Of a DNA stretch of 64,000 bases, positions 5,909-58,668 are shown in pieces; position 1 is the first letter of the stretch, and every line of letters starts with the position of its first letter. The stretch is from a virus (taxonomy: Duplodnaviria > Heunggongvirae > Uroviricota > Caudoviricetes). The notes beneath the pieces are model-generated. The model saw nothing but the letters and a program-made list of their open reading frames with translations, did not search any database and was not told the origin of the DNA. The position numbers were made by a program, and so were the translations under genes. Where the stretch lies: IMG/VR virus record IMGVR_UViG_3300045988_158233; one strand, written 5' to 3'.

Positions 5909-6055
5909 TTAACAGCCATTGATTCTCGCCTAAAAATTCTAAGGCAGCACCTACCATTTAACCTTTACACCACAGCCGTAGGCATTTAGGCTATATCACA
6001 TATAAGAAAACAAGTTGTTTCAGACGATAATTATATACGCAAAGGGAACTCTCCA

Positions 6056-6724
6056 ATGACCAAGATCTTTGTGGTTGGCGGCACAAAGGGCGGGCCTGGC
6101 AAATCCACCGTTGCCCAGCAAATTGCCGTTTGCCTGAAAGTCAAAAAGAAGAAGAAGGTTTATATCACCGATATAGATATTCAGCGCACGACAACGAGCT
6201 GGTGTGAAGACCGTCGACAGAACGAAGATCTTGAGCTGATTCCTTTTGCATACGTTCAAGATGACATCATTAAGCACCTAAAATCGCTTCAGGGTAGAGC
6301 TGAGTATGTAGTGGTAGATGCTGGTGGCTTTGACTCCGAAATTCAGCGACAAGCGATGCTGATGGCCGACGTTATCATTATCCCGCTGCGTCCTAAGCGT
6401 CGTGATTTGAAATCTTTACGTGACATCGATCCTATTATCGACAATGTTCGCAATGTAAACGACAAAGTGAAAGTCCGCGCGGTCATGAACCAATGCCCGG
6501 CTTTGCCATCACAAGTGTCTCGCATTCTAGCGGCTAAAGAGATTGTCGAGACGTTTGGCATCGAGTCTGCGCCAGTCAATCTATATAACCGCAACGTCTA
6601 TGATGATGCGGAAGAGTCTGGTCGTTCTATCTTTGAAATGACCGGTAGCGAGCGCGACAAAAAGGCGGAAGCCGAGTTTGAAGAATTTGTAGATTATCTG
6701 TTGAGTCTGGAGGAAGAAGAATAA
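6056..6724 (+). CDS. parA: ParA-family partition ATPase
   Basis: Deviant Walker A VVGGTKGGPGKST at the N-terminus; ~220 aa, the size of small ParA proteins; followed immediately by a small DNA-binding partner. Confidence 0.8.
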   Translation: MTKIFVVGGTKGGPGKSTVAQQIAVCLKVKKKKKVYITDIDIQRTTTSWCEDRRQNEDLELIPFAYVQDDIIKHLKSLQGRAEYVVVDAGGFDSEIQRQAMLMADVIIIPLRPKRRDLKSLRDIDPIIDNVRNVNDKVKVRAVMNQCPALPSQVSRILAAKEIVETFGIESAPVNLYNRNVYDDAEESGRSIFEMTGSERDKKAEAEFEEFVDYLLSLEEEE

Positions 6725-7083
6725 TGTCCATGAAAATGGGTGACCTAGCAAAGCGCAAAGAGCCTGATGCACCGGCTAAGAACACAACTCCTTTGCGCCA
6801 ACCAATCAGACCACAGGGACGCCCGACTCGTGGCAAAGAGAAAATTAAAAGCCGCACGATGTCACTGGAAGACGAATACTTCGAACTGCTGGAGATGATG
6901 AAGTTCATCCCTCGCTTCGAGAAGTTCACCCGTTCTGACGTGATTCGCGCAGCCATTTTCCATCTGGCAGAGAAGTCACCGCAGGAAATCGAGGACATCG
7001 TGAAACTTAACGAGGCGATCACTGCTGCCGATGTCACGATGCGTACCGATGAAATTAAACGCGAGTTAATGAAGAAAGGTTGA
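6724..7083 (+). CDS. Small partition partner protein (ParG/ParB-like, probable ribbon-helix-helix)
   Basis: 119-aa ORF start-overlapping the parA stop (ATGA); basic N-terminal tail then SLEDEYFELLEMM...RSDVIRAAIFHLAE, resembling RHH/CopG-type folds. Confidence 0.5.
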   Translation: MSMKMGDLAKRKEPDAPAKNTTPLRQPIRPQGRPTRGKEKIKSRTMSLEDEYFELLEMMKFIPRFEKFTRSDVIRAAIFHLAEKSPQEIEDIVKLNEAITAADVTMRTDEIKRELMKKG

Positions 7084-7093
7084 TATAAATCTC

Positions 7094-7122
7094 TAAGGCT
7101 GGTCTGCATTGGACAGCCTTAG
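7094..7122. terminator. Hairpin between convergent genes (probable bidirectional terminator)
   Basis: aaggctg...cagcctt inverted repeat between the + gene ending 7083 and the - gene ending 7144. Confidence 0.45.
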
Positions 7123-7143
7123 AAATATTTCGTTCTATGAAAG

Positions 7144-8217
7144 CTATTCGTAGTTAAGCTCACCGAACAGACTGAACATCAAGTCACCATCCAAAATTTC
7201 AAAGGGCAACTCGACATACTCATCCTTATGTCTCGGAATTGCGTTGCCGTCGTTAGGGGCATTCTTGGTATAACCTTTTACATGTTTACCGTTTTCTTTT
7301 GTATACGGCAGCACGACAATTCGACCGTGATTTTTTGAAATGATAGTTCCTTCTTTCCAGAGCGTATTGCCTCTTGAGGTGGTTTCGCTTTCGCTAGCAA
7401 CTTTAACACTCCAACCTACCTGATTTTTGTCCTCAAACCAGAAAACAAAGTTGCCAACAACCAGTACCTTTTGCCCATTCCTGAGAGCTTCATCCAGCAT
7501 TCTTTTTACGCTGGCGAGTTGCAGTAACCGGTTAGCACGCGGCAGAAGCATTGAGCGAATAGTCGCTTTTGTTTTTCCCCAATGTGCAGCGCCTGATAAA
7601 CCAAAACCTCTGGCTATGCGTTCTTGGTAGCAGATCTTCGCTGTCTTAGCTTTGTTGTTATATGAACATTCCCAAGTGTTAGGAGCAACGAGTTGAAGTG
7701 AAACTTGGAATTTGGGAAGAAAAACAAAATGTAAGTAAGGCATCTCGCTTAGCACGTCAAAAAGGGGTTGACGCAAAGTTTCGTAATCTGGGTTAATTAT
7801 TAACTCATTTAATGTCACTCGCGGATCGTTGGCGTGTGCCTTAATTGCTTCGTTGAGCATTATATGCTCTTCATCCATGAGACGTGATTTGGCTTTGAGT
7901 GCTTTGTCAACTTTCAAACGCAATGACTTCTTTTGAAACATAGATAGAGGAAGTTTTTCAATGTCAAAGCTCACGTTTTTATTCAGCTCTAATGCCGCTT
8001 TTCTTGCTTCAGGATAGTTATCGTAGTCGTCATCAAAAGCGTGGTTTGGCATACCACGATCAACATATCGCCGATACCAAGCAAGGGTTCCATCATTACG
8101 GAGTTTCAGACAGAACATCGACCATTTATTCCGTTCATATTTAGGCTGAGGCCAAAAAGCCAGTTCGGGAAGGCCATATCCTGGAAGTCTATTCATGCGC
8201 ATGGTGACAATATCCAC
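7144..8217 (-). CDS. Hypothetical protein (oppositely oriented moron-like gene)
   Basis: 357-aa ORF on the minus strand, convergent with the partition operon; no motif recognised. Confidence 0.5.
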   Translation of the reverse strand: MDIVTMRMNRLPGYGLPELAFWPQPKYERNKWSMFCLKLRNDGTLAWYRRYVDRGMPNHAFDDDYDNYPEARKAALELNKNVSFDIEKLPLSMFQKKSLRLKVDKALKAKSRLMDEEHIMLNEAIKAHANDPRVTLNELIINPDYETLRQPLFDVLSEMPYLHFVFLPKFQVSLQLVAPNTWECSYNNKAKTAKICYQERIARGFGLSGAAHWGKTKATIRSMLLPRANRLLQLASVKRMLDEALRNGQKVLVVGNFVFWFEDKNQVGWSVKVASESETTSRGNTLWKEGTIISKNHGRIVVLPYTKENGKHVKGYTKNAPNDGNAIPRHKDEYVELPFEILDGDLMFSLFGELNYE

Positions 8218-8320
8218 GAGGCTAAAACACTGATTCTAACATGATCTCCCTTGATAAATCTGTCAATGACATAGCATCTGGGGTTGGAGTCAAATTATGT
8301 TGTTCTTGGTATCCATTAGG

Positions 8321-8376
8321 AGCCTGTTTCTGTATATAAATAATAAGTAACTTATTAAATATATACGGAAGCAGGT
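8321..8376 (+). other. Long conserved hairpin (copy 1 of a family with 53698..53731 and 55461..55519)
   Basis: agcctgtttctgtatata ... tatacggaagcaggt: ~14-16-bp stem with two G-U pairs and an AT-rich loop, followed by T-run. Confidence 0.5.
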
Positions 8377-8482
8377 CTTTTAAAAGACACCACCAGACCA
8401 ACTCCCTTCCGTTTTCACTTCCAAAAACTGACACCAGTCGCTATCATCCGCTCATTGTGATAAGTAAGTAACTACCTACCAG

Positions 8483-9243: not shown

Positions 9244-9256
9244 AAACAATTTGTTT
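9244..9256. promoter_or_regulatory. AAACAA-T-TTGTTT palindromic site (family member)
   Basis: Perfect 6-1-6 palindrome ~26 nt upstream of the helicase start; the same motif recurs upstream of at least five other genes. Confidence 0.5.
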
Positions 9257-10616: not shown

Positions 10617-10698
10617 AAAATAAGCGTGGAGAACACCTCCACGCTTGATTCATTGGTGAAACAACTTTTCTTTTGCCAAACCACAAAAGAAAAACACA

Positions 10699-11879
10699 TG
10701 AGCCTTTATGTTATATCAACATTTAGGTTGGTCACAATATTGCCTGTTAAAAGTGGAATTATCGTGAGCGAGCTGAAAGAGCTAATTACCGAATTAGATT
10801 TTGAACAATGGTTGGACACTGAAGGTATCGTTTATCGACGTGGAGGCGTGAGTGCTCGCGGTCGTGAAGTGAATATCAAGGAGTGTCCGGTATGCGGCAG
10901 CTCCAACTGGAAGGTATATTTCAATCTGACCAGTGGCGTCGGCAAATGCTTCGCTGGTGATCATCCCGAAGAGATTCAGTTCAATAAGCTGGTCTTCCTC
11001 AAGCACTACAGCGGTAAATCACGACGACAGTTCGAGGAATATGTGCAGAACGCTCTTCTTTCCCAGGGGTGGGCACCAAAGAAAGAAGAGATAGTGCTTA
11101 CAAGCACAGTCGAGTTAGAGGGACCACTTGCACTCCCTCGTCATTACGAACTTCCTATAGATGGCCGTCTTCCAGACTATCTGGTTGAACGAAACATATC
11201 GCCTGAAATGGCAAAGTATTTTGACCTACGATACTGCGTCGAAGGCAAGCACGCTTATGTAGATCCGTATACAGATCAGGTAAAAGGACAGATATTCGAT
11301 ATGCGAGTACTGATACCGGTTTACGATCTGGATGGGGTAATGAAGACATTTCAGGGACGAGACATTACCGGTACAGCAGACCGCCGCTACCTCTTTCCTA
11401 TGCAGCTTCCAGCTTCAGGTAAGTTTCTCTACAACGGCCATAATGCAGTTGGCAAACAGACTGTAGTTGTCTGTGAGGGGGCGTTCGATGTTATGGGAGT
11501 TAAACGAGCTATTTTTGACGAAGAAACATTACGTGATTACGTGGAACCAATAGGAACGTTCGGGATGCATCTATCTGGCAACACCACTCAGGATGCAGAA
11601 GATCAGCTGGGCGCGTTCCTGACGCTCAAGGCGCGTGGATTACGTAATGTGATCATGATGTGGGATAGTGAAAAGCAAGCTATACGCAACACTATGGCCG
11701 CAGCCAGGCGACTCACAAGTATTGGTCTTAATGTCAAAGTTGCGTGTTTGGGCGAGGAAGGACTCGACCCCGGCGATGCGACACCGGGGCAGATTATCAA
11801 AGCCTACTATTGCGCAAAACCTTATTCACGACAGCTTGAACTCTTAAGCAAGGTGAAAGGCATTGCAGCACTAGTTTGA
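10699..11879 (+). CDS. DNA primase (zinc-ribbon + TOPRIM)
   Basis: Zinc-finger CPVCGSSNWKVYFNLTSGVGKCFAG and TOPRIM-like VVCEGAFDVMGV. Start placed at the ATG preceded by AAAAGAAAAACACATG rather than the longer track ORF start 10626. Confidence 0.65.
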
Positions 11880-13016
11880 ACCAGTATTAGTCACATACAC
11901 ATTGACCGAAAATGATTTAACTTCTGTATTGAAGTTGTCAGTCATTACCGCGAGGTAGGCATTCTTGGTATCTCTGAATTGCTTCAGGATGATTTGAACG
12001 TTATCGGTGCAAACAAACGAGGTAGCCAGATTGCCTCCTTTCTCTGAAAAATCCTTCAGGAAGGTGCAGTCAACTTTGCCATCATTAGCGGTGAAGGTAG
12101 CATCATCACCCTGCCAGGTAAATGTAGCGTTAACGCCCTTATCAATGGATTTAGCAATAAGTCGCTGGGTGGCGGATTTTGTTTTGGCTTTGGAAGCCGG
12201 CGCTCGATATTTGCCGCTTTCTTTCAGTTCTGCAATGTAATCGCAGCCTCTTTTTTCTCCTTTATCGCAAGCAGTCTGATAAAGGTCGGCTGCTTTTTTA
12301 TAGTCCTTTTTTACACCTTCCCCATTCTCATACATAATGCCAAGATTGGTTATGGCGTCGGCGTTTCCAAGTTCCGCTGCCTTTTTATACCACTTAACTG
12401 CTTCTGCATCATTGCGTTTAACGCCTAACCCATCATCGTATAGTATTCCTAATCCTATCATAGCTTCTGAACTGCCTTGGTCTGCCGCCTTTTTGTAATA
12501 AGTAAAAGCCTTTTTATAATTCTTTTTAACGCCTTTACCATATTGGTAATACGCCCCAAGAACTGAAGTTGCTTTAACATACCCGGCATCAGAGGCTAGT
12601 TTGAAGTATTTAATGGCGAGTGCATGATCTACTTTACCAAGCATCCCCTTTTGATAAATAGCACCAAGATTGTTGTAGGCTCTACCTTCACGAGCATCCC
12701 CCGCAAGTTTGTAGTACTCAACAGCTTTATTTAGGTCTTTATCTACACCCTCGCCAAATGTGTACATAACTCCAAGTGCATAATATGCTACTTTATCTCC
12801 CTTTTCTGCAGCTAGATCAATCCACTTCTTGGCCTCAACTACATCCTTATCAAAACCATTGACACCATCAAAATAATTTGTACCTAACTCACTTTGTGCT
12901 GCGGTATCCCCTGCGGTAGCGGCTTCTATCAGCGTTTGTTTATTGTCTGCGTTAACGAATCCAGAGTTAAAAAGCAAAGTTAATGCCAGCAACGATGAAG
13001 ATTTTATGTATTTCAT
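11871..13016 (-). CDS. Secreted Sel1-repeat (TPR-like) protein
   Basis: Signal peptide MKYIKSSSLLALTLLFNSGFVNA, then about eight ~36-aa repeats of the form A-x-YY-LG-MY-x-GEGV-KD-x-KA-x-x-WYKKAA; C-terminal ~100 aa non-repetitive. Start trimmed to the Met at the signal peptide. Confidence 0.75.
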   Translation of the reverse strand: MKYIKSSSLLALTLLFNSGFVNADNKQTLIEAATAGDTAAQSELGTNYFDGVNGFDKDVVEAKKWIDLAAEKGDKVAYYALGVMYTFGEGVDKDLNKAVEYYKLAGDAREGRAYNNLGAIYQKGMLGKVDHALAIKYFKLASDAGYVKATSVLGAYYQYGKGVKKNYKKAFTYYKKAADQGSSEAMIGLGILYDDGLGVKRNDAEAVKWYKKAAELGNADAITNLGIMYENGEGVKKDYKKAADLYQTACDKGEKRGCDYIAELKESGKYRAPASKAKTKSATQRLIAKSIDKGVNATFTWQGDDATFTANDGKVDCTFLKDFSEKGGNLATSFVCTDNVQIILKQFRDTKNAYLAVMTDNFNTEVKSFSVNVYVTNTGSN

Positions 13017-13249
13017 GTTTTTTTTTCTGTTGATATAGGATGAACAGTTTAGACGCGGCAAGCGTCAAGTGTGCGAAAAAGGGTACTTAAATTTAGTTAA
13101 TATGTCAGCTTTGTTGATTTAGTTTATGGTCGGTAAAGTTACTGGGAAACTAATAACCATAAGAAATAGTACGCCATTTAATTATTGTGGCACTGCTCGT
13201 GTTTTGATTAACTAATACCTGCGATAAATATAAATAAAGGGAAGCCAAC

Positions 13250-47704: not shown

Positions 47705-47717
47705 TAACAACTTGTTT
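47705..47717. promoter_or_regulatory. AACAA-C-TTGTTT palindromic site (family member, left arm imperfect)
   Basis: Upstream of nrdB. Confidence 0.4.
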
Positions 47718-47748
47718 AAACGCACCAAAAAAGAAAAAGGAAAAACAC

Positions 47749-48891
47749 ATGTCATATTCAACGTTCCGTTTGGGTGCTAATGATGCAACCAAAGAGCCTA
47801 TGTTCCTCGGACAATCTGTCAACGTGGCACGTTACGATCAGCAAAAATACCGTGATTTTGAAAAGTTGATTGAACGTCAATTGTCTTTCTTCTGGCGGCC
47901 GGAAGAAGTTGATATTTCGAGCGATCGTATCGACTTCAACACGAAGCTGCGGGACCACGAACGTCACATTTTTCTGAGCAATCTCCGTTATCAAACGTTA
48001 CTCGATTCAGTTCAGGGACGTAGTCCAAATGCAACGCTGCTGCCGCTTATCTCTATTCCTGAACTGGAAACGTGGGTTGAAACGTGGTCTTTCTCTGAGA
48101 CTATCCATAGCCGCAGCTACACCCACATTATTCGTGGCATGGTGGACGATCCGAGCATTGTTTTTGACGGTATTGTTACGGATGAAGAAATCATCAACCG
48201 AGCGATCAGTATCTCTGCTGAATATGACAGGCTTTATGGGATGACCTGCGAGCGCCAGTCGTTAGGTGAGAAGGAGTTTGAACGTCTGTACGTAAATGAA
48301 TATGGCTGGGAGCCATACCCTTTGCACCGTCAGCTTTTCCGCACGTTGGTGTCCATTAATGCGCTTGAGGCGATCCGTTTCTATGTAAGTTTTGCATGTA
48401 CGTTTGCCTTTGGCGAACGGAAGTTGCTTGAGGGTAACACCAAAATTATGCGCTTTATTGCCCGTGATGAAGCTCTGCATTGCGAAGGAACTGAACGCAT
48501 GATCCGCTTCATGCGTACCGGTCGCGAAGGTTTATTGTGGAAAGAGATTGCTGCTGATGAAGAAAACGTCATTTACGACACCATGAAATCAGTCGCCGAA
48601 CAAGAAATGAACTGGGCAGACTATCTCTTCAAAGACGGTTCGATGATTGGTTTAAACGCGGATATTCTCAAAACCTATGTAAAATACCGCACCAATCTGG
48701 CTATGAATCGTCTTGGCCTGAAGGCTTTATTTCCAGAGGTTACCACCGATCCGCTGGTCTGGATGAACAAGTGGTTGTTAACCGACACACTGCAAATTGC
48801 ACCACAAGAGGCAGAGCAAAGCACATATCTGGTAGGTCAGATCGATTCTACCGTGGATAAGGCTTCTCTAAGCCAGTTTGCTGACCTGTAA
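47749..48891 (+). CDS. nrdB: Ribonucleotide reductase class Ia small subunit
   Basis: 380 aa, alignable by eye to enterobacterial NrdB along its length ([18 protein letters not shown]..., [35 protein letters not shown]). Confidence 0.9.
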
Positions 48892-48968
48892 ACCGATACA
48901 AAGCATTATGTGGCCTGGCAACGCTGGGCCACAATGGATCACAAGAATTAAGAAGGAACAAAACTAGC

Positions 48969-49838
48969 ATGAACTTTACCAAACTGACTGACCACCTGAA
49001 ACTTGCCACCGATCGACTCATTGGATTTAAGCCAGAACCATATGAGTTGCATGAAGGTCATGGTGTAGCTACTGAAAGTATTTACAAGATGGTCGATCAG
49101 TTTCATGAACTCTTCCAGCATCCGAGACGCGTTATGCCGACACCAGAGCTGCTTCGTCTCCGTGCAAGCCTGATTCATGAAGAAGCTGTAGTGGAAGGTA
49201 TTCCAGCCGCAATGAATGGGGATATTGAGCAACTGCTGGATGCAATGGCCGACTTTTTATACGTTGGTGTTGGTACGATGGTCGCCATCAAAGGTGGTAT
49301 TTCTACCGGCATGACCTATTACACGCAGGAACAGAGCATTGATCGCTTTATGCAGACAATTTTTGTGCCCGGTAACACTGTTTTCGATGATATGGCAATG
49401 CCATTTCAGGAAGCTCGTGAGGCGTCATGTATGCTCGAAGAGCTGGCAGATAAACTTGAGAACAAGACTGTTAAGGATTCTGAGCTGATTCAGGAACTGC
49501 GCCGTGTCATGAACAAAATCTATGTGGCGTGCATGATGACCTATCGACTGGCTGATTTCCTCGGTATCAATGTAGTCGAGCTGGTTGGCGAAATTCATCG
49601 GTCTAACATGACAAAATTATGGCCTGCTGATGTCGAGGAACGTCGCCAGGCTGTGGCCAACTGCAAATACGACTCTTCAGACCTGGGATTTCGCCATGCT
49701 GATGGTACCGATAAGATGATCGGTTTTCGAATTTCCGATGGAAAGATTCTGAAGTCTCCAACCTATAGTGATGTCGATTTATCCTCCTTTGTTGAGCAAG
49801 CTAAAGCCTCAGCAATGTACGGAATGATCAAAAAATAA
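48969..49838 (+). CDS. Hypothetical protein within the nucleotide-metabolism block
   Basis: 289-aa ORF; followed by hairpin terminator 49907..49931. Confidence 0.45.
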   Translation: MNFTKLTDHLKLATDRLIGFKPEPYELHEGHGVATESIYKMVDQFHELFQHPRRVMPTPELLRLRASLIHEEAVVEGIPAAMNGDIEQLLDAMADFLYVGVGTMVAIKGGISTGMTYYTQEQSIDRFMQTIFVPGNTVFDDMAMPFQEAREASCMLEELADKLENKTVKDSELIQELRRVMNKIYVACMMTYRLADFLGINVVELVGEIHRSNMTKLWPADVEERRQAVANCKYDSSDLGFRHADGTDKMIGFRISDGKILKSPTYSDVDLSSFVEQAKASAMYGMIKK

Positions 49839-49906
49839 TTGTAGGTAGTTATCTATCTATGTATATTGTGTTAGCGCGTTAAATTCCTGAAACAACTATT
49901 CGTTTT

Positions 49907-49931
49907 GGTGGCCTATGGCCACCATTTTTTT
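49907..49931 (+). terminator. Rho-independent terminator
   Basis: ggtggcc-tat-ggccacc hairpin followed by a T-run. Confidence 0.6.
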
Positions 49932-49981
49932 ATCTATCTGGCCTTGTTCCCTCAATAAATGTAAACTCACGTAATGAATAA

Positions 49982-51112
49982 GTGGTTACTTATCTTTGTG
50001 AGGTTTTTGTGTCACTCCTTTTGAATCGTGAGCATACGAACGGTCAGGTAACAAACGCATCGTATGCAAAAGTTATTGAGACGGTGCTTAAAAGCGGCGT
50101 GCAGGCTGATGATCGCACAGGCACTGGTACTTTAAGCACCTGCTACGTTCCCTCTTACTACATGCTTACTGGTGGGACTGTGCCGCTTATTTCTGGAAAG
50201 GCGGTAAATCTTAAGCCACTGCTTGTCGAACTTGAGTGGTATCTGAAAGGCACGGGCAACATCCAATTTCTCAAGGATAACGGCGTTAAGATTTGGGATG
50301 CATGGGCCGATGAGAATGGCGATTTGGGGCCAGTTTACGGTAAGCAGTGGCGTCGATGGGAAGATACCCGCATCGTGAGCCATAGTGAATATCTGAGCAA
50401 GATCGCTACTTTCCGTGAACGCGGGTACAAAGTCGAGGGATACCTAGGTATCAGTGAAGATCGCGTAGTGCTGTCCCGTGAAATCGATCAGCTACAGCGT
50501 ATTGTCGATACACTGCGCACGAACCCTACCGATCGTCGCATCATGCTTAACGCATGGAACGTAGGCGAGCTTGAGGATATGAAACTGCCACCTTGCCACT
50601 TTGTCTTCTCTTTGTGGAGTCGTGAGCTTGATTTTGAAACCCGTTTAACGATGGCAACTGACATTGGTCTTCAACACAGTCGCCTCGGTTACGAGTCTAT
50701 CTACACCAAGATGCTATACGATCTGGAGATGGACGGCAGTGTTACTGAAGCTGAACTGGATGAACTTGGAATCCCCAAACGCATCCTCAACTCCTGCCTC
50801 GTACAGCGTAGCGTAGACACTTTTGTTGGTATGCCATTCAATATTGCTGGCTATGGCATTCTCACTCATTTTCTCGCGAAGATTACGGGTCACATGGCCG
50901 GTGCATTTGTGCATTTTGGCTTTGACGTGCATTTGTACAATAACCACATGGAAAGTGTGCGTGAGCTAATGCAACGACAGGCTCCAGAGCATTCAGATCC
51001 GGTCGTTATATTCCCTAATGAATGGTCTGAGCTGGATGATTTCAAATGGGACGAGATTCTTATTCTTGGCTATGCCCCTCTACCGTGGATCAAGGTTCCA
51101 GTGGCGGTGTGA
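49982..51112 (+). CDS. thyA: Thymidylate synthase (ThyA family) with an internal ~50-aa insertion
   Basis: DRTGTGTLS, WADENGDLGPVYGKQWR, active-site LPPCH, and C-terminal HLYNNH; GTG/alternative start, exact start uncertain. Confidence 0.85.
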   Translation: MVTYLCEVFVSLLLNREHTNGQVTNASYAKVIETVLKSGVQADDRTGTGTLSTCYVPSYYMLTGGTVPLISGKAVNLKPLLVELEWYLKGTGNIQFLKDNGVKIWDAWADENGDLGPVYGKQWRRWEDTRIVSHSEYLSKIATFRERGYKVEGYLGISEDRVVLSREIDQLQRIVDTLRTNPTDRRIMLNAWNVGELEDMKLPPCHFVFSLWSRELDFETRLTMATDIGLQHSRLGYESIYTKMLYDLEMDGSVTEAELDELGIPKRILNSCLVQRSVDTFVGMPFNIAGYGILTHFLAKITGHMAGAFVHFGFDVHLYNNHMESVRELMQRQAPEHSDPVVIFPNEWSELDDFKWDEILILGYAPLPWIKVPVAV

Positions 51113-51114
51113 TA

Positions 51115-51527
51115 TGGCAAGAGGTATGTATGTCTTATGCGAAATTGAAGGTGTGCTGGCAAATACCAGCCATCGTAAATCTGTATCTGACTCGGATGCA
51201 GGCCAATTCATTGCCGGTGATGAACTCATTTTCCCCACCAGCCGTATGTTGCGTGGTTTTGCTCGCTCAGGGGCTGAAGTGGTGCTTATCAGTAGCCGCT
51301 CTGAAACTCTTGAAGCGCCCACTAAACGATGGCTGAAAGATTTTGGTGTTGATTACGACTGGCTTCATCTCGTACCGAATAGCACTAGTTATGAGAAGCA
51401 TATTAAGCGCACATTAGCGGAGCATAAAGGCGATCTGCTTATCGCTGCGCTGGTGCACGATCCTCGACTCCGTGCCGCTTTAGCTGACTCTCATCATAGA
51501 CCGGTCATCTATGAGGTGAGCAAATGA
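51115..51527 (+). CDS. Hypothetical protein
   Basis: Internal ATG of track ORF 51018..51527, chosen because it begins just after the thyA stop; no motif recognised. Confidence 0.3.
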
Positions 51528-52000
51528 AGATGATAGCTGCTGTTGGCCGTAACTATGAGATCGGCATAGCGAACGAACTGCCCTGGCGTTGTTCTACCGA
51601 TCTGAAGCTATTTAAGAGACTCACCAAAAACGCCACTGTCGTTATGGGGCGTAAAACGATGGAAAGTCTCAAACGCCCTCTTCCAGAGCGTCATAACCTC
51701 GTTTTGACGCGCTCTCATGGCTTTGTACCAAATGGATTCTACCCTGCTGGTGTGGATGATGTGTTGCGATTACCAGAGCCTGTGTGGGTGATTGGCGGGA
51801 AACAAATTTACTCGCTATTCATGCCGCATGTTGAAGAGATTTGGCTCTCCCACATCGACGTTGATGTGCCAAACGCCGATGCATTCTTCCCGGCAAGCAT
51901 GATGCGTAATTTAGGCTTTGTGCCTGTTGAAACAGCTTATACCCAACGAGCCAGCGAGGAAGAGCCTGGCTTTTCGCAGATCGTATACAGAAGGTCGTAA
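51524..52000 (+). CDS. folA: Dihydrofolate reductase
   Basis: 158 aa; N-terminal MIAAVGRNYEIGIANELPW and VVMGRKTMESLKRPLPERHNLVLTRS match the DHFR fold signature. Confidence 0.8.
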   Translation: MKMIAAVGRNYEIGIANELPWRCSTDLKLFKRLTKNATVVMGRKTMESLKRPLPERHNLVLTRSHGFVPNGFYPAGVDDVLRLPEPVWVIGGKQIYSLFMPHVEEIWLSHIDVDVPNADAFFPASMMRNLGFVPVETAYTQRASEEEPGFSQIVYRRS

Positions 52001-52644
52001 TGGATTACCGGATTGGGATCACTGGTGCTCAGGGCAGTGGGAAAACAACCCTGGCTAAATATATCGACAAACATTACGGAATCCCTTACGTGGATGCTGG
52101 TGTCGGAAGTTTGATGAGCCGCCTCGGTGTTCGAGTAGGTGAGTCTATGCCTCTATATGAGCGGCTTCAGATTCAAATGGAAATAGCAAAGCATATAGAG
52201 CTACTTACACGTGGTGTTGAAGGCTTTGTTATCGATCGCACACCTGCTGATGTTATGGCCTACACGTTGGATTTGGTCGGCCATACAAATGAAGATCGGT
52301 GTATTGAGTTAGCCCTCGATATCGAAAAGTTTTGCCACAAAACTGCTATTTCAAACTTTAACGCCATTGCTGGCCTACGCCCGGGGGTCTCTCTCTCAGA
52401 GCGAGATTACTTGCGGTCACAACGAGCATCATTAGACCGTCTGTATGTCGCTCGTATTGATGCGTTGATGTGCGGGGAACTGACAAAAATTCACCTGCAT
52501 CCGCAAAGGGGAGATCTGCAAACCTTCGTCGTTTCCAACCGGTATCGCACAGTTGAAGCAAGAGCCAGATCAGTAATGAGAATGCTCGATAACGCGGTAG
52601 AAAAGATAGAAAACCGCTTCTGTGGCCGAGTTACCGTTCATTAG
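52000..52644 (+). CDS. P-loop nucleotide/nucleoside kinase-like protein
   Basis: Walker A IGITGAQGSGKTTLAKY at the N-terminus; 214 aa; location in the nucleotide-metabolism block. Confidence 0.5.
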   Translation: MDYRIGITGAQGSGKTTLAKYIDKHYGIPYVDAGVGSLMSRLGVRVGESMPLYERLQIQMEIAKHIELLTRGVEGFVIDRTPADVMAYTLDLVGHTNEDRCIELALDIEKFCHKTAISNFNAIAGLRPGVSLSERDYLRSQRASLDRLYVARIDALMCGELTKIHLHPQRGDLQTFVVSNRYRTVEARARSVMRMLDNAVEKIENRFCGRVTVH

Positions 52645-52705
52645 AAATTGTTCGCCTCTTCGACATTGCGACAATAAAACTCTCAAAATGGGTTAAGGAT
52701 AAAAA

Positions 52706-53125
52706 ATGTTTAGTGAACTGTTGCTTGAAGATGAACTGGATCGGAAAACAACAGAGGCTTTGATTCGTGTAGCGGACGAACATTCCCGGTCGCTTATGAG
52801 CGATCGAGAGGCTCGTCTGGCTATTCGTGCCATATTCGAAACTGTGCAGGGGCTTGTTGGCGCACAAGTAGGTGAAGCCATTAACATCGCCATGTCTCAG
52901 TTCAGTGAAGGCAGTATAAAGCCTCTGTTTCCTATGCATTTGATGCTGGCTGGTGGCACGGTGCTTTACGTCTCTGTTTGTCTGGATAGCAACCAAATCA
53001 ACATTCTCAACACGGCGTCAGGTAAGTGGAAAGATCCGGTTGTCTGTGAAACCAGTGAAGAAACTTTGAAAAAAGCGGCTCAATTTGTACGTAGCGCACT
53101 ACTTAAGGGCGCTAAGAAGTTGTAA
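52706..53125 (+). CDS. Hypothetical protein
   Basis: 139-aa ORF. Confidence 0.4.
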   Translation: MFSELLLEDELDRKTTEALIRVADEHSRSLMSDREARLAIRAIFETVQGLVGAQVGEAINIAMSQFSEGSIKPLFPMHLMLAGGTVLYVSVCLDSNQINILNTASGKWKDPVVCETSEETLKKAAQFVRSALLKGAKKL

Positions 53126-53131
53126 GGAGTT

Positions 53132-53692
53132 TTGATGACAACGATTGTTGCAGGCATCGATATCGAGTCTACGGGGCTGGATTTCCTTTCTGGTCATAAA
53201 ATTATTGAAATCGCAATTACCCGCTATGAACTGGAGACACAGAGACATATTGATAGTCTGGAGATGCGTTTTAACCCTCGCAGGAACATAGATCCGAAAG
53301 CTCAAGCCGTTCATGGCATTTCATTAGAACAGCTGGCAGCTGAACCTTTGTTGTCAAATCATGCCAGCGAAATTGGCGCTTATATGGAGGCATGTAGTGC
53401 GTGGGTTGCTCATAACGGCGAAGCGTTTGATATACCATTTATTAGACACGAGTTTTCAGGGTATGGAGTAAGACTGCCAGACGTTCCCGTTATAGATACT
53501 ATGTTATCGGGATTGTGGGCCACAGAAGACGGCAAACGTCCTCGCCTTGAAGAATTGGCCTTCTCTCTTGGCTTTATATACGATCATACCAAAGCACATA
53601 GTGCCTTATATGACACAAACTTAATGATGCAATGCTTCTTTAAGGCACGTAATAAATACGGATTTTTTAAATTACCCTCTGAAATTGTGTAA
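53132..53692 (+). CDS. DnaQ-like 3'-5' exonuclease (DEDDh)
   Basis: Exo I AGIDIESTGLD, Exo II HNGEAFDIPFI, Exo III HSALYDTN. Confidence 0.7.
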   Translation: MMTTIVAGIDIESTGLDFLSGHKIIEIAITRYELETQRHIDSLEMRFNPRRNIDPKAQAVHGISLEQLAAEPLLSNHASEIGAYMEACSAWVAHNGEAFDIPFIRHEFSGYGVRLPDVPVIDTMLSGLWATEDGKRPRLEELAFSLGFIYDHTKAHSALYDTNLMMQCFFKARNKYGFFKLPSEIV

Positions 53693-53697
53693 AACAA

Positions 53698-53736
53698 AAG
53701 CCTGCTTTAAAGATAGTTTGAAGCAGGCTTTCTTTT
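53698..53736 (+). terminator. Rho-independent terminator (member of the agcctgctt...aagcaggct hairpin family)
   Basis: aaagcctgcttt-aaagatagttt-gaagcaggcttt followed by T-rich run. Confidence 0.6.
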
Positions 53737-53852
53737 AAAGAACAGTCGCCTTTCAATCATTTCCTGCCTGTATTTAATACTTTTCCGCCTGATAGGTTTA
53801 GTCAAAATGTAGCCATCGAAACGCAAATGCAACTAAACAGAAGGAGACTTAC

Positions 53853-54662
53853 ATGAGTTCGGTTGAAAATGTAATGACAAATGATGATCTGGATGAGCTG
53901 ACAGCCATGTTGCAATCACTTGATGAACCAGTAAAAAAAGCTGCACAGGTTGAAAATACTGATGATATTGACGATCTGCTTCTCGGCCTCGATGCTGGCG
54001 TAGCCATGAGTTCTGATGATGTTGCCGAAGAACTGTTCAATGAAGAAAAAGTAGGTGATTTCAGCTCCGCTTTAAATGAGTTGGAATTAGCTCATGAGCC
54101 TATAAACGTAATTAACGCTGAAAGTGTTGAAGCTGCCGTAAACGAGCCAGAACAATTGGGATTTATTGAGGTTGAAGAGTGTGTTGAGGTTAATGAAGAA
54201 TTAAAAGTTCAACAGTCAAATGATAGCAATACAAATAAAAAAGCTCGTACTGCAAGAGGTCCTCGTTTTACTTTAAGTGATAAAGATGATTCGTTTTTCA
54301 ATAAAGCAGGCTTAGAAAAAGATATTTTCTTAGACGCTTACGATAACGCGCCTGTCAAAGCAAAGGATAAGATATTAAACCTTCTTAATTGGTTTAGCGG
54401 AGGTCCAGATATTAGTGTTTACACGGTAATTTCCATGAGACACCTTCTCACAGAAAAGAAGGCTACAAGTAATAGTATTAAGATTGCTTTAATGAGCAAT
54501 CCAGAAAAACCGTATCCGCTTAACACTGCGTCAACTCAGGCTGGGCAAATGATGGCTGTATTTCCAGCTACAGGAATTGCCGTTAGAGACGGTGGAAATC
54601 TAACATTGAACGAAGAATCACCGATCGTTAAGAAGTTTGTCGCGGAGTACACTATTGGATGA
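53853..54662 (+). CDS. Hypothetical acidic protein
   Basis: 269-aa ORF, strongly acidic N-terminal half. Confidence 0.4.
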   Translation: MSSVENVMTNDDLDELTAMLQSLDEPVKKAAQVENTDDIDDLLLGLDAGVAMSSDDVAEELFNEEKVGDFSSALNELELAHEPINVINAESVEAAVNEPEQLGFIEVEECVEVNEELKVQQSNDSNTNKKARTARGPRFTLSDKDDSFFNKAGLEKDIFLDAYDNAPVKAKDKILNLLNWFSGGPDISVYTVISMRHLLTEKKATSNSIKIALMSNPEKPYPLNTASTQAGQMMAVFPATGIAVRDGGNLTLNEESPIVKKFVAEYTIG

Positions 54663-54833
54663 CGTTCCCCTACTGAAAATAAAGCCCATAGAGAGCTTTA
54701 TAGTGCTGGGTAAGCCAATCACATACCCAGCACCACAAAAACGCGCCAGAGAGCTTCTCGTTTGCATTTCTGGCGCGTTTTATTTGATTGCCATACATAA
54801 AATCAAATGCAAAAATAGGTAATCACTTACCTA

Positions 54834-55439
54834 TTGAGAAAGAAGATGATTGCAGCCGAAAAAATCAAAAAGCGAAAGCGCGACAACTCTCTTCGTGACC
54901 TCTGGAGAACACCTGACTGGCTGTTTAATGCCATTCAACGTTATCTGGGAGTGACATTTGATGTTGACGTTGCCTGCAATAAGGACAATGCAAAGCTGCC
55001 TATTTTCATAGGCGTTGAGCGCGATGCTTTGAAATCTGAATGGGGGCAGCCAGGTACAATTGCCTTCCTCAATCCACCCTACTCCAAAATCTCCCCCTGG
55101 ATTGATGCGGCTATACGTGAGCAGGCTCGCGGAGTTACAACAGTGATGCTAATTCCTCAATCCCTCGATACAAAGTGGTATGAGCGTGCAACAGAGTGTG
55201 CGAATGAGACGATTATTCTGTCTGGTGGCCGCGTAGCGTTTGTCGAGCCTGACGTCAATCTGGGTCAGGTAGAAGTAAACATCAACCCCGGTGGCAGTAT
55301 GCTCGTTGTTTTTCGCGGATTCTGTCAGGACGCTGGGCACTCTATAAGCAAGATCCCTTTGGACGTCATGAAAAGTCTGGGAGGGTATGATCCTGCGAAT
55401 GTGATCAGGAAAAAAAGACCATCAAAGAAGGCTGCTTAG
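54834..55439 (+). CDS. Phage-type DNA N6-adenine methyltransferase (Dam-like)
   Basis: 201 aa; catalytic NPPY in IAFLNPPYSKISPW; overall size and layout of small phage Dam enzymes. Confidence 0.6.
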   Translation: MRKKMIAAEKIKKRKRDNSLRDLWRTPDWLFNAIQRYLGVTFDVDVACNKDNAKLPIFIGVERDALKSEWGQPGTIAFLNPPYSKISPWIDAAIREQARGVTTVMLIPQSLDTKWYERATECANETIILSGGRVAFVEPDVNLGQVEVNINPGGSMLVVFRGFCQDAGHSISKIPLDVMKSLGGYDPANVIRKKRPSKKAA

Positions 55440-55460
55440 TTTGCTCTGGCGTCTGTAATT

Positions 55461-55519
55461 AGCCTGCTTCTGTATATATAAATAACTACATATTAATTAT
55501 TAATATACGGAAGCAGGCT
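55461..55519 (+). other. Long conserved hairpin (copy 2 of the family seen at 8321..8376)
   Basis: agcctgcttctgtatata ... atatacggaagcaggct: 16-bp stem with one G-U pair, ~27-nt AT-rich loop, followed by gtttt. Confidence 0.55.
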
Positions 55520-55601
55520 GTTTTGTATCAGAGACTCCCAGACCTGAACATCACTACAGAATCCACTAGAACCCCTTCCCAGACGCTTTAAAATCGATTT
55601 T

Positions 55602-55856
55602 ATGAACCACTTTAAGGAAACCAACATGTCATACCCGACTAATGTCGTTGCGCTCGTAGAGAGCGATTTTCTGGCCCAGGCTCGTGAAATGATGAAAGAT
55701 CGTGAGCAGGCCTTCAACTTGTACGAATGGGCAATTAAGTGCTTGCATCTTGGCGAGCATCGCGAACTTGTTGAACAGCTTTTAGGTGAGTTGATCAATG
55801 AGGTGTTTGCCTTGAATGTTCAACTACATGGTAGAGAAAATAATCAATCACAATGA
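55602..55856 (+). CDS. Hypothetical small protein
   Basis: 84-aa ORF. Confidence 0.35.
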   Translation: MNHFKETNMSYPTNVVALVESDFLAQAREMMKDREQAFNLYEWAIKCLHLGEHRELVEQLLGELINEVFALNVQLHGRENNQSQ

Positions 55857-56438
55857 TAGATAAGTACAAACTATTCATAAAGTGAATTGTAAGTGCTAAG
55901 ATCTGATAGTTTCCAGTCGTAGACTGGAGGCTCGATCTGATGGGTGGGGGTAAGCGTCACTGGCGTCAGGTTTAAAAAAGCTCACTACCAGCGTAGAACC
56001 GGTGCCGTTTAGGTGTCGGGGAAGGGGGAACCAAAGTGAGCAGAGACAAGGGTCACTTTATGATTGTCGAGTCTGGGGTGTTTCGAGAGGTTGAATCCAG
56101 TACTCCCCTTCATAAAGTGTGGGAAGATCTCGGTTCTGGGGTGCTGTCATCCATAACTTCCCAAGTCTAAGCTGGCAGTAGACTTAGACCATAGCTTTTC
56201 AGGTTATGAAACGACCAGGTTGGTGAGGAATTTTATACTCACCTCCCTGGGAGAGTATTACCTGAAAAGACAACCTCTCACTTCGTTCGAGGTGAACTTC
56301 ACTCACTTCGTTCGTTCAGTTCAGGTTTATAAAAACCTGTTCTGGGAAGTAATTTGTTTATTTTAATAATTATTAACACGCACGCGTGTGCGCACGCGCG
56401 AGGAAAAAATCGGCGCGGCGCTTGATTCAGGAGTTTAT

Positions 56439-57032
56439 ATGACGACGAAGACACCAGCCCGATCGCAAGCAAAAACTCGCAAAAAAGACAAAAACAAAAA
56501 TTCTCCCCGCACCAATCCCACAACGCCTGTCGTAGAGTTCAACCCCCAGCTTAAAACCGTGAAAATCTTTAGTGATGGCTCTTGCCTCAAAAATCCGGGT
56601 GGCCCGGGCGGTTACGGTATCGTTCTCCAGTATCGTGGTGAGGAACGCGAGTTCTCAGATGGTTTTCATAGCACCACCAATAACCGCATGGAGATGATGG
56701 GGGCACTTATCGGGCTGGAGCGTTTGAAATATCCATGCAACGTTATTTTGTACTCTGATAGCCAGTATCTGAAAAACGGCATGACACAGTGGATGAAATG
56801 GTGGAAACGTAATGGATGGATGACTTCTGATAAAAAACCGGTAAAGAATGTTGATCTGTGGAAACGTCTGGATGAGGCCGCAAGTCGACATAATGTTCGC
56901 TGGAAGTGGGTTAAAGGTCACGCCGGGCATCGTGAAAATGAAATATGTGATCGACTCGCGAAGATCGCAGCTTTTTCCGCAGCCGATACGCCTCACAAGA
57001 AAGACATTGGTTTTATTTACAACAAGTGGTAA
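56439..57032 (+). CDS. Ribonuclease H (RNase HI family)
   Basis: [65 protein letters not shown]; start placed at ATG with RBS caggag (track ORF begins 56388). Confidence 0.8.
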
Positions 57033-57177
57033 GTAAGTGTTTACCTATCATATTAAATCATGTATCTTATCGGCGTCAGGATGACAATGTGTCGGTAAGA
57101 CACAGTTCCAGGATGGAACGAGAAAGGCGGCTGGCGATCGCCAGCCGCAACTCTTTCTGACACTGGATGGAGTCCAC

Positions 57178-57672
57178 ATGGCACGTCAAACCTATTTCAC
57201 TTCTGCAACTAAACGTCCTCGTTCACTACGTCAAATTTTGGCCGAATTATTTAGCGGTCGTGTTCTGTCACGTCTTGATGAACTGGAGACTACCGTTCGG
57301 TTGCTGAATGAACGTTTAGATAAGCAAGCGTCAGTTGTTGCGAACGTGGGGGCGATTGTTACCTCTGGTTCTTCACACCAAGCGAAAAATGCACGGCCTT
57401 TAGTGAAGGAGAAAAACAACAAGGACAGTTCGAATGGAAAATTTTCAAAGAAAGAGGCTGAAACCAATGGCCTACGTTCTCATTATAGTTTCACTGGCGA
57501 CGGTAGCCGTTCCAGCCGGTCAGAGCCTTTTGATGCCGGATTCATCCATCACCACACCTCCGTCGACGACAATTACCACCACTCCAGTAGAGCGTCCTGT
57601 CACTCTGGATGGGATGACGGTGGATGCGATACCTCAAGTTCATCCAGTTACTCAGGATCATGTTGTGACTAA
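57178..57672 (+). CDS. Hypothetical Ser-rich protein
   Basis: 164-aa ORF, low-complexity C-terminal half. Confidence 0.3.
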   Translation: MARQTYFTSATKRPRSLRQILAELFSGRVLSRLDELETTVRLLNERLDKQASVVANVGAIVTSGSSHQAKNARPLVKEKNNKDSSNGKFSKKEAETNGLRSHYSFTGDGSRSSRSEPFDAGFIHHHTSVDDNYHHSSRASCHSGWDDGGCDTSSSSSYSGSCCD

Positions 57673-57681
57673 GGTGGTTGT

Positions 57682-57870
57682 ATGAACTGGCTTTCAAATC
57701 ACTTTGGGAAAATTTGGCTGGCAATTCTGGCTCTCATGGCCGCCGGTTGGGTATCCAACATTATAAAACTCGTTTGCTCAGGTGATCTCCAGTTTCAGGC
57801 TGGCATGACCTTGGCTCGTGTAGTTGGGATTTTTATTTTTCCAGTCGGTTCGGTACTTGGTTATTTCTGA
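57682..57870 (+). CDS. Hypothetical small membrane protein
   Basis: 62 aa with two hydrophobic segments. Confidence 0.3.
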   Translation: MNWLSNHFGKIWLAILALMAAGWVSNIIKLVCSGDLQFQAGMTLARVVGIFIFPVGSVLGYF

Positions 57871-57926
57871 CGGTTGTTAGTGCATATGCATTGACCGTCT
57901 TTGCGTAAGCAATTTATGTAACCAGA

Positions 57927-57939
57927 AAACAATTTGTTT
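57927..57939. promoter_or_regulatory. AAACAA-T-TTGTTT palindromic site (family member)
   Basis: Perfect 6-1-6 palindrome upstream of the ATG at 57964. Confidence 0.5.
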
Positions 57940-57963
57940 TGACAAATAGCAAAAGGAAAACAC

Positions 57964-58389
57964 ATGTTAGGTTTCTTCAAAAAGAAAACTCGTAAAGCTG
58001 TTATCGAAGTCAAAAAAATGGAGAACCGTGATGCGGTTGAAGCCACCGTGTGGGGCGGGTACATGATCTCCTATGCCAACGGTACATGCGATGCAAAAGA
58101 AATTTCCATTCTTGAGAAAACAATTGCAGCTCTGCCTGCATTTTCTCCTTTTGCTGGTGAGATTGCCCAGATGAGCGCCAATATCCGCGCTCAATACGAA
58201 GCCTCACCGCGCCGTGCTAATGCCCAGGCTTTACGTGAGCTGGCGGATGTGGCCGGGACTGATGATGCAGTAGATGTACTGTGTCTGTGCCTTGATATTG
58301 CCGACCAGGACGGCATTGATGAACCAGAAGAGCAGGCGCTGAAAAAGATCGCCCAGGCGCTTCAGTTGTCACTGGATGCTTATCTCTAA
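57964..58389 (+). CDS. Hypothetical protein, possibly TerB-like
   Basis: 141 aa; helical, with acidic motif LCLCLDIADQDGIDEPEEQALKKIAQAL reminiscent of TerB-type domains (weak, from memory). Confidence 0.35.
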   Translation: MLGFFKKKTRKAVIEVKKMENRDAVEATVWGGYMISYANGTCDAKEISILEKTIAALPAFSPFAGEIAQMSANIRAQYEASPRRANAQALRELADVAGTDDAVDVLCLCLDIADQDGIDEPEEQALKKIAQALQLSLDAYL

Positions 58390-58655
58390 TGCTTGAGAGA
58401 TTCCGGCTTGTGACCGTCATTGCTCTTCTGGTGATGGCGGTGTTGGTGGATTTTACGGGAAAGATGATGTCTGTCATTTCTGATGGCGTCCTCATTGGTC
58501 TGGCGATCTACTTCGCTTATCCGCTAGTCCGTAAAGCAACGTGTTAATGACAAGGGCCAAATGGCCCTTGTGTTTCGTTGACCGAAATAGAGAGTTTGCA
58601 CCTTTACGTTTAGCTTGCTCCCCTTTTATGCCACATCACAATAAAGCCAATAAGA

Positions 58656-58668
58656 AAACAACTTGTTT
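58656..58668. promoter_or_regulatory. AAACAA-C-TTGTTT palindromic site (family member)
   Basis: Upstream of the ATG at 58687. Confidence 0.45.

Follow-up and report, generated by a model that had tools for sequence, protein, structure and literature searches.

A palindrome dispersed at the heads of transcription units in SSU5-type phage-plasmids is a candidate operator of a plasmid-prophage regulon

A 13-base-pair (bp) palindrome, AAACAA-N-TTGTTT (AAACAANTTGTTT), was found to recur at the heads of plus-strand gene blocks in a 64,000-nucleotide (nt) stretch of a tailed-virus genome (IMG/VR record IMGVR_UViG_3300045988_158233; the whole stretch is referred to as the window). On balance, and with modest confidence, we read it as the dispersed operator of an oligomeric repressor that would hold one regulon off in the plasmid-prophage state; protein binding, repression and the exact transcription starts are inferred. 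The window belongs to an SSU5-type phage-plasmid. It is about 97 to 98% identical, some cargo differences aside, to Escherichia phage Cyrano (the E. coli phage-plasmid pLF82; SSU5 family), and its DNA identity to Salmonella phage SSU5 and Klebsiella relatives is about 76 to 81%. According to the Cyrano annotation, the window covers the tail/lysis end, parA, replication, recombination, nucleotide metabolism, and part of the accessory region, and the plus strand carries nearly all of its lytic-type genes. Four motif-bearing genomes were compared, namely Cyrano, SSU5, Klebsiella pJN2-26 (Kp) and a K. ozaenae plasmid (protein identity 45 to 65%), together with a single motif-negative genome, a syntenic plasmid from Moellerella (Morganellaceae).

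Five perfect copies of the palindrome are present in the window, compared to 0.03 expected from dinucleotide shuffles, and none of 100 shuffles reached five. A preliminary description of this DNA, made from the letters alone, had proposed the palindrome and had named a count no higher than in shuffled sequence as evidence against it; the palindrome is thus real by that comparison. Three more copies carry one mismatch (22654 to 22666, 47705 to 47717, and 63196 to 63208), and the degenerate copies previously placed near 22668 and 63209 turned out to be the ends of the first and last of these. At the two-mismatch level the signal becomes thin (14 copies versus 6.6 expected) and, because the excess is so small, only the eight sites with at most one mismatch were counted as real. 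In a greedy open reading frame (ORF) model, by which 91% of the window is coding, seven of the eight sites fall into gaps and the one at 58656 overlaps only a spurious ORF, and all eight were taken as intergenic. The coordinates given earlier for the palindromes were confirmed, except that the first begins at 6008 and not 6007. The reported distance of 23 to 42 nt to the start codon holds as the distance from motif center to ATG for the seven forward-type sites, but the site at 63196 lies 81 nt away. Measured from the motif end, the gap to ATG in the forward-type sites varies from 16 to 35 nt, so that the start-codon distance varies, contrary to the fixed distance claimed earlier; the motif is placed relative to the promoter or transcription-unit head instead.

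All eight sites are on the plus strand. The perfect palindrome at 6008 to 6020 (AAACAAGTTGTTT, with ATAAGA in front) lies 35 nt upstream of the parA start (6056), and the identical site is found in the relatives (Cyrano 29259, SSU5 30449, Kp 71833). A perfect copy preceded by CTAGA at 9244 to 9256 is followed after 19 nt by the start of a DnaB-like helicase gene (9276), with orthologous sites in SSU5 (34385), Kp (75767) and the K. ozaenae plasmid (33363), the flanks of which have diverged. At 22654 to 22666, 19 nt before a CobT-like gene (22686), the copy has one mismatch (AAATAATTTGTTT) and an extended −10-like sequence, TGC-TACATT, 12 nt upstream; this site is perfect in SSU5 (42729) and Kp (91040). 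The perfect palindrome at 36223 to 36235, with TTAAGA in front, stands directly downstream of a terminator-like hairpin (about 36178 to 36195, plus a T-run) and 16 nt upstream of the gene at 36252. The nrdB gene (47749) is preceded at 31 nt by a one-mismatch copy (47705 to 47717; TAACAACTTGTTT, ATAAGA in front), upstream of which lies a terminator-like hairpin (47648 to 47666), and relatives have a second, degenerate copy 25 bp upstream. A perfect copy at 57927 to 57939 lies 24 nt before a TerB/TciA-like gene (57964), with orthologous sites in Kp (17795) and the K. ozaenae plasmid (83892), and another at 58656 to 58668 (ATAAGA in front) lies 18 nt before the gene at 58687, with a CACAAT −10-like hexamer 13 nt upstream and a terminator-like hairpin at 58550 to 58571. 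Finally, the one-mismatch copy at 63196 to 63208 is inverted (AAATAAATTGTTT-TCT); it stands directly 3′ of a GC hairpin and 19 nt upstream of an extended −10 (TGT-GAAAAT, hexamer at 63228 to 63233), with its center near −38, ahead of the gene start at 63283. This layout is repeated at Cyrano 85818 and SSU5 85602. A weaker sequence with two mismatches and without AGA, AAACAACTTTTCT at 10659 to 10671 (+), follows a terminator-like hairpin and precedes the start context of the primase gene; it is possibly a decayed copy of the palindrome, and possibly a chance match.

When the sites were aligned, a longer and asymmetric motif became apparent, consisting of (A/T)AAGA or CTAGA, then AAACAA-N-TTGTTT, and then A. 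As carried in the leaders it can be written AGAAAACAANUUGUUU, and a 30-bp probe sequence for it would be TAAGAAAACAAGTTGTTTAAG. In the complete genomes of Cyrano, SSU5 and Kp, the motif occurs in a forward layout, with the AGA arm upstream, and in an inverted layout (AAACAANTTGTTT-TCT), which lies 19 nt upstream of the −10, is centered near −38, and often directly follows a GC-rich hairpin. The arm extended by AGA points toward the promoter core in either layout. The clearest forward cases are in a small early-gene cluster outside the window (Cyrano 93 to 98.5 kb), where the order is TGn-GATAAT/TATTAT/GAAAAT, 13 to 14 nt (aACACCAaCAAGA), palindrome, Shine-Dalgarno sequence, and ATG; examples in this cluster of the relatives are TGcGATAAT, TGgTATTAT and TGtGAAAAT, each at an offset of 13 to 14. 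The mean −10 score was maximal at offset 13, where TG at −15/−14 occurred in 18 to 43% of sites, compared to 0 to 14% at neighboring offsets. If transcription starts about 7 nt past the hexamer, the palindrome would lie at about +8 to +20. Some promoters carry both layouts, and the two copies are then separated by exactly 51 bp (Cyrano 93114/93165, SSU5 88319/88370, K. ozaenae plasmid 89051/89102); a second class of paired sites, with 25-bp spacing, is found before terS and nrdB. Inside the window, the −10 evidence is weaker. The site at 22654 has good evidence and those at 9244 and 58656 have acceptable evidence; at 6008, 36223, 47705 and 57927 it is ambiguous. What can safely be said is that the motif stands at the head of a transcription unit, after the terminator of the preceding unit and ahead of the following ribosome-binding site.

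The motif is kept at orthologous positions in diverged relatives. Sites with at most one mismatch number 18 in Cyrano, 20 in SSU5, 17 in Kp and 21 in the K. ozaenae plasmid, and in the last of these 16 of the 21 are perfect and have the same layouts despite the low protein identity. The shared positions are the terS leader, parA, the helicase, the cobT-like gene, nrdB, the TciA-like gene, the gene at 58687, and the early cluster. Between genomes, the flanking sequence and the middle base vary, and the 15 nt before the AGA arm of the helicase site are unrelated in the four genomes. In the Moellerella plasmid, we found three one-mismatch hits, none at a promoter position bearing the motif elsewhere, and no enriched palindrome of this kind. 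Given its persistence at the promoters of diverged relatives and its absence from Moellerella, the sequence comparison indicates that the motif is a clade-specific, strongly constrained element. A scan of IMG/VR with the 16-mer returned mostly single chance hits and SSU5-like contigs and revealed no second phage group sharing the motif.

One of the conserved positions, the terS leader, lies outside the window (Cyrano 57-135, SSU5 56-134, Kp 38628-38683). It carries one or two palindrome copies, 25 bp apart where there are two, followed immediately before the terS start by a conserved terminator-like GC hairpin and T-run. This layout suggests that the packaging/structural operon may be controlled by antitermination or attenuation.

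For expression we relied on RNA-seq of an LF82 lysogen, given as normalized reads per Cyrano gene, with the authors' background at 9.8 and a floor of 5 (PMC9928086 supplement). The first genes behind the motif gave 7.1 (terS), 21 (helicase), 7.8 (cobT-like), 5.7 (CYRAN_58), 12.9 (nrdB), 7.0 (TciA-like), 7.1 (CYRAN_87), 6.3 (CYRAN_93), 7.5 (CYRAN_101), 12.8 (CYRAN_105), 12.2 (CYRAN_106), 5.7 (CYRAN_108), 6.7 (CYRAN_110), and 25.5 (CYRAN_111), with a median of about 7.5, while the minus-strand maintenance genes gave 90 to 7000 (PMC9928086). Since the genes behind the motif are at background in the lysogen, promoters that look strong and constitutive (TGcGATAAT) appear to be off in the plasmid state. 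This silence and the location of the motif, at or beyond the predicted start site, speak for a repressor operator. In such a model, the palindrome would overlie or closely follow the transcription start of sigma-70 promoters read by the host RNA polymerase, often of the extended −10 type, which would head most plus-strand lytic-type units (replication, nucleotide metabolism, early small genes, the packaging leader, and parA). A twofold-symmetric oligomer, either a single dimer or a pair of ribbon-helix-helix dimers whose half-sites are spaced by 7 bp, would bind AAACAA-N-TTGTTT and block polymerase binding or escape. A second, inverted copy near −38 (51 bp off) or a tandem copy 25 bp off would permit cooperative binding or looping, and the outcome would be a single dispersed regulon kept off during plasmid-prophage life. 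The idea that a dimeric regulator's operator or a promoter component coordinates a regulon had been put forward in the preliminary description, and it is still the best-supported reading (the sites are enriched, intergenic, directional, conserved, −10-linked, and followed by lysogen-silent genes), but without the fixed start-codon distance, the coupling to a start context, and the helix-turn-helix (HTH) regulator that accompanied it.

Several observations weigh against the repressor operator. The parA operon, despite its perfect site, gave 50 to 89 reads in the lysogen, 5 to 9 times background; a second promoter (GATAAT/TATATA just downstream of the palindrome) or autoregulation could account for this exception. 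Silence in the lysogen is equally expected of an activator-dependent promoter. In the window, the −10 signal at the fixed offset is weak for 36223, 47705 and 57927, and a scan for two-hexamer promoters called none upstream of any palindrome site. The AGA extension is asymmetric, unlike what a purely symmetric dimer predicts. Three or four promoter-like places in Moellerella, including one upstream of parA, have the left arm AAGAAAACAA without the right arm, and part of the motif may therefore work independently of a symmetric binder. Lastly, among the candidate proteins examined, none fits in every respect.

A conserved translation start context had also been described, and it proved to be real. 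Allowing up to two mismatches, AAAGGAAAAACACATG has 11 copies in the window, all on the plus strand, compared to 0.12 expected, and AAACACATG occurs 11 times on the plus strand and never on the minus strand, with 10 of the 11 opening ORFs of at least 50 amino acids (aa). An example of AAAGGAAAAACACATG lies at 47736 to 47751 (+), and other copies end at the ATGs at 10698, 24890, 26306, 31658, 35126, 36733, 40666, 57964, 58687, 62060 and 63283. All of the previously listed start coordinates check out, with 9276 a weaker variant (aaaggaaagcacATG). The proposed coupling to the palindrome is, in contrast, loose: both occur together only at 47749, 57964 and 58687, and at 63283 behind the inverted site. 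Many genes without a palindrome, such as those for the primase, the DNA polymerase, SSB and sbcD, also begin with this start context, and we therefore treat it as a separate feature. GGAAA(A)ACACATG is kept in orthologues (DNA polymerase, sbcD, nrdB, TciA-like and others) of the four motif-bearing genomes, in which the bases further upstream change. These genomes have 11, 10, 9 and 14 copies of AAACACATG, and Moellerella has none, with other contexts instead. The plain reading would be a favored, unstructured A/C-rich ribosome-binding region. It is also possible that the start context is a translational operator, since its presence or absence follows that of the palindrome and of an FljA-family gene.

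This gene, CYRAN_114, lies outside the window on the minus strand (Cyrano 100780-101301; SSU5_121; pJN226_0046) and encodes a full-length FljA-family protein ("repressor of phase-1 flagellin"; Pfam Flag1_repress, 1e-80) with a marginal Hfq-like hit. It is present in all four motif-bearing genomes, without a hit in Moellerella, is expressed in most conditions in the lysogen, and is retained in the Klebsiella plasmids. Klebsiella is a non-motile genus. FljA proteins have been reported to block translation of fliC mRNA, and it could be asked whether the palindrome itself acts in the mRNA, as a 5′-leader element, made up of an A-rich and a U-rich tract or of a weak hairpin, through which an RNA-binding protein such as this Sm-like repressor blocks translation or alters stability, with the GGAAAAACACAUG start region possibly in the same control. 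The motif would indeed fall in the 5′ leader, 16 to 35 nt before start codons, and the AAACACATG context shares the presence/absence pattern of the gene. The palindrome as RNA, however, had a folding energy of only −0.3 to −1.8 kcal/mol (z about 0), no better than shuffles; among about 25 single-mismatch sites there was no compensating change in the other arm and no bias toward G-U-compatible changes. Inverted copies lie upstream of promoters or, at SSU5 87625, between convergent genes, and the E. coli fliC leader, checked as a possible FljA target, lacks the motif. Exact twofold symmetry around a central base that is free to vary is the hallmark of a site read in duplex DNA by a symmetric oligomer. 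We conclude from these sequence properties that the motif acts in DNA, and consider action in the mRNA distinctly unlikely. An RNA hairpin or structured leader of the nut/boxB type was rejected on the same folding and covariation results, and an Rfam scan of the window returned tRNAs only.

The main alternative to a repressor operator, given that lysogen silence fits it too, is a positive promoter component serving an element-encoded activator or a factor that redirects host RNA polymerase to early or middle promoters. The directional AGA-AAACAA arm is tied to the promoter core, the copy near −38 is in a class II activator position, canonical −35 elements are missing, and two-hexamer sigma-70 promoters are depleted (13 versus 31.9 ± 5.8 in shuffles, for window positions 44001 to 64000). 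The silence of the downstream genes would then reflect absence of the activator, and the left arm persisting alone in Moellerella would fit as well. We nevertheless hold this to be unlikely, as the commonest site position, just past the −10/start region, suits a repressor, the best promoters have TGn with GATAAT or TATTAT and would normally be activator-independent, and no sigma-like or MotA/AsiA-like gene and no homologue of P1 Lpa was seen. A host protein restricted to Enterobacteriaceae, a regulator or nucleoid protein borrowed by the element, would explain why the motif occurs in Escherichia, Salmonella and Klebsiella elements and not in the Moellerella one, and why no element-encoded candidate fits fully. 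The motif partly resembles the IHF core (WATCAANNNNTTR) and KdgR-type half-sites. By inspection against the IHF core, however, it has two mismatches, including the conserved T, on which ground an IHF site was rejected, and IHF is not clade-restricted. The negative side of the distribution consists of one genome, and we know of no host factor with a 6-1-6 site of the AAACAA-N-TTGTTT type; a host binder seems very unlikely to us.

Among the proteins of the element, the 119-aa ParG-like protein encoded after parA (6724 to 7083, +) has a ribbon-helix-helix-like sequence pattern and a weak hit, below the curated cut-off, to the ribbon-helix-helix regulator aCcr1 (E 2e-4). For such a partition protein the palindromes might serve as centromere-like or silencing sites, and it might also act as a global repressor, in the manner of omega of pSM19035 or KorB of RK2. 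The half-site centers are 7 bp apart, which suits ribbon-helix-helix dimers; 7 bp is the spacing of adjacent dimers on the omega heptads. The protein is 91 to 93% identical across three genomes, and its gene is transcribed in the lysogen, where its operon, alone among the motif-bearing units, stays on, as negative autoregulation would predict. Moreover, every motif-bearing genome has the parA site, and the only near-copy in Moellerella with a perfect long arm is also upstream of parA. On the other hand, the predicted DNA-contact strand (IKSRT.S.EDE) is unchanged in the homologue from Moellerella, the plasmid of which lacks the palindrome elsewhere; a single palindrome precedes parA, where type Ib centromeres are usually arrays; and the fold is predicted from sequence. 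We regard this role as quite improbable.

The HTH protein suggested earlier as a possible regulator (21737 to 22123, −) is an XRE-like putative repressor (HTH_19, E 8e-4, below the Pfam cut-off; PHROG "transcriptional regulator," E 1e-11). It is disfavored as the binder: SSU5 has no homologue yet 20 sites, Moellerella has a homologue yet no sites, and the upstream region of the gene has another palindrome, GGTAAGTGCTTACC. In this divergent region (22150 to 22350), GGTAAGTGCTTACC is accompanied, at distances of about 120 and 185 bp, by the half-sites GGTAAG and CTTACC; these may be operators of the HTH repressor, or GGTAAGTGCTTACC may belong to a second-class promoter firing toward 22375. The second protein with a ribbon-helix-helix pattern, CYRAN_117 (outside the window), is lysogen-expressed and was rejected, as its predicted DNA-facing residues differ among genomes with identical motif and the K. 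ozaenae plasmid has no hit; for both ribbon-helix-helix-like proteins the aCcr1 match is the sole support, and the predicted contact residues of neither track the motif. Two further candidates follow the motif in their presence: a 71-aa possible winged-helix protein (16582 to 16797, +; CYRAN_37 homologue), which is not lysogen-expressed and for which a single-sequence AlphaFold model had low confidence (pLDDT 59.5), and a 70-aa P1 Cra-like protein (37559 to 37771, +). CYRAN_123 (winged-HTH-like, before terS, with homologues within the family only), the ParB-like pair, CYRAN_37 and CYRAN_113 were rejected as binders because they are at background in the lysogen. Homologues of CYRAN_37, 38, 61, 62 (the P1 Cra-like protein), 82, 101, 106, 111 and 114 are present in all four motif-bearing genomes without a tblastn hit in Moellerella; with one negative genome and tblastn of short proteins, this profile is only a lead. 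Scans of about 25 small proteins against Pfam, PHROGs and NCBIfam gave no informative DNA-binding family beyond weak hits, and no solved relatives were found.

The four motif-bearing genomes share the palindrome, the start context and the FljA-family gene, and the Moellerella relative lacks all three. A speculative and, as a whole, unlikely extension would be that the lytic program is held off not by the integrase-linked HTH repressor but by a clade-specific, jointly acquired two-layer system. In that scheme, the palindrome would be the DNA operator of a maintenance-phase protein (either the ribbon-helix-helix partition protein, in the role of a global silencer like omega or KorB, or the FljA-family protein), and the GGAAAAACACAUG start region would be a translational operator for the FljA-family Sm-like protein, like that of RegA in T4.

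In phage P1, one short C1 operator occurs at many promoters genome-wide, including those of replication, ssb and late-activator genes, and a single repressor holds the lytic program off (P1 record annotation; PMC10695390). The element studied here is likewise a plasmid prophage of about 100 kb, with many transcription units and one operator type dispersed at their heads, at 8 sites in the window and 17 to 21 per relative. Different from this 13-bp palindrome with its AGA extension, the P1 operators are annotated as 17-bp monovalent sites. C1 operators are asymmetric. Membership in the C1 system was rejected, as the operator sequence differs and tblastn searches with C1 (the 283-aa repressor), Coi and Lpa against Cyrano, SSU5, the two Klebsiella relatives and the Moellerella plasmid yielded no match with an E value below 0.18. 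KorA/KorB of the IncP plasmid RK2 and omega of pSM19035 also act through short palindromic or heptad operators that recur at many promoters of a single replicon, and partition-linked DNA-binding proteins serve there as global repressors as well. The repetition of short operators across one replicon is shared with these systems, but the operator sequences are others, the ParB-like genes of the SSU5 family are at background in the lysogen, and the ParG-like candidate is weakened by Moellerella. The arrangement further resembles lac O1, with a main operator centered at a predicted position of about +11 to +14 and, at some promoters, a second upstream operator at 51 bp, about 5 turns, which suits looping; the 25-bp spacing class, in contrast, does not fit same-face binding.

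A second, more abundant dispersed palindrome was noted in the same genomes, with the approximate consensus aaATAGGTAAGTACTTACCTATcat, or (ATAG)GTAAGTACTTAC(CTAT), also written GGTAAGTACTTACC. About a dozen convincing copies are in the window, with cores starting at 3027, 8464, 17244, 22156, 24816, 31558, 35078, 40538, 45222, 54819, 57033 and 62002. Cyrano, SSU5 and Kp each have about 27 to 29 hits with at most two mismatches, some inside the structural operon, and the Moellerella plasmid has degenerate copies. At 45215 to 45243 this palindrome occupies the spacer of a promoter called by the scan (TTGATA-17-TAACAT), the same arrangement as in P1 late promoters, which have the Lpa box at −22. 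The sequence ATAAGTAACTTAT-TAAATATATAC at 8343 to 8372 matches the P1 late-promoter pattern AAGTNACTT-N4-(−10), and a near-identical one is found directly upstream of terS in Cyrano, SSU5 and Kp, where the records wrap around. The second palindrome is, from these sequence matches, likely a late-promoter class, and as it stands in P1 late-promoter geometry alongside exact copies of AAGTNACTT-N4-(−10), the element seems to have two promoter classes, like P1. The AAACAANTTGTTT palindrome itself was rejected as an Lpa-type late promoter (a 9-bp inverted repeat, AAGTNACTT, centered at −22, then 4 nt and the −10), since its sequence is another and it lies downstream of the −10.

A literature search found no description of a motif, operator, promoter class or regulon of this kind for the SSU5 family. 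The instance thus appears new for a widespread family. The principle is not new, as the dispersal of operators over plasmid prophages and over plasmids is familiar. SSU5-type phage-plasmids abound in Escherichia, Klebsiella, Salmonella and Enterobacter, and a single family-specific protein of the element is present in 797 PLSDB plasmids. They have been discussed in the literature as vehicles of resistance genes. How they control lysis versus lysogeny and the timing of their genes is essentially uncharted, and a 16-base motif at 17 to 21 promoters per genome, together with a second, P1-like promoter class, offers a concrete wiring diagram. The motif can be used as bait for the regulator and as a signature for annotating transcription units in hundreds of plasmids.

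Some further features of the window were noted. A non-coding stretch of about 450 nt (about 55,900 to 56,330), nearly identical in Cyrano and SSU5, includes the 44-aa "CYRAN_81" ORF and is expressed at 12 times background in the LF82 lysogen RNA-seq; an Rfam search of it gave no match. On its 3′ side, ahead of the RNase H gene, are direct repeats (cactcacttcgttcg) and a GC-rich palindrome (acgcacgcgtgtgcgcacgcgcg) starting at about 56378. The stretch could be a structured RNA or a replication origin. The nrdA gene is apparently split at 45283 to 47642 into overlapping ORFs (45283 to 46881, 532 aa; 46827 to 47642, 271 aa), compared to one 771-aa gene in Cyrano, and this appears from the sequence to be a frameshift, a sequencing error or a pseudogene. 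Large minus-strand ORFs at 7144 to 8217, 11871 to 13061, 18752 to 19972, and 30000 to 30980 are in stretches unlike Cyrano, some of them in 2-kb bins of lower GC content (0.38 to 0.41), and are probably variable cargo or defense islands. Finally, four tRNA genes (Asn, Tyr, Thr and Ser) are clustered at 18009 to 18566, part of which is 93% identical to the P7/D6 tRNA region.

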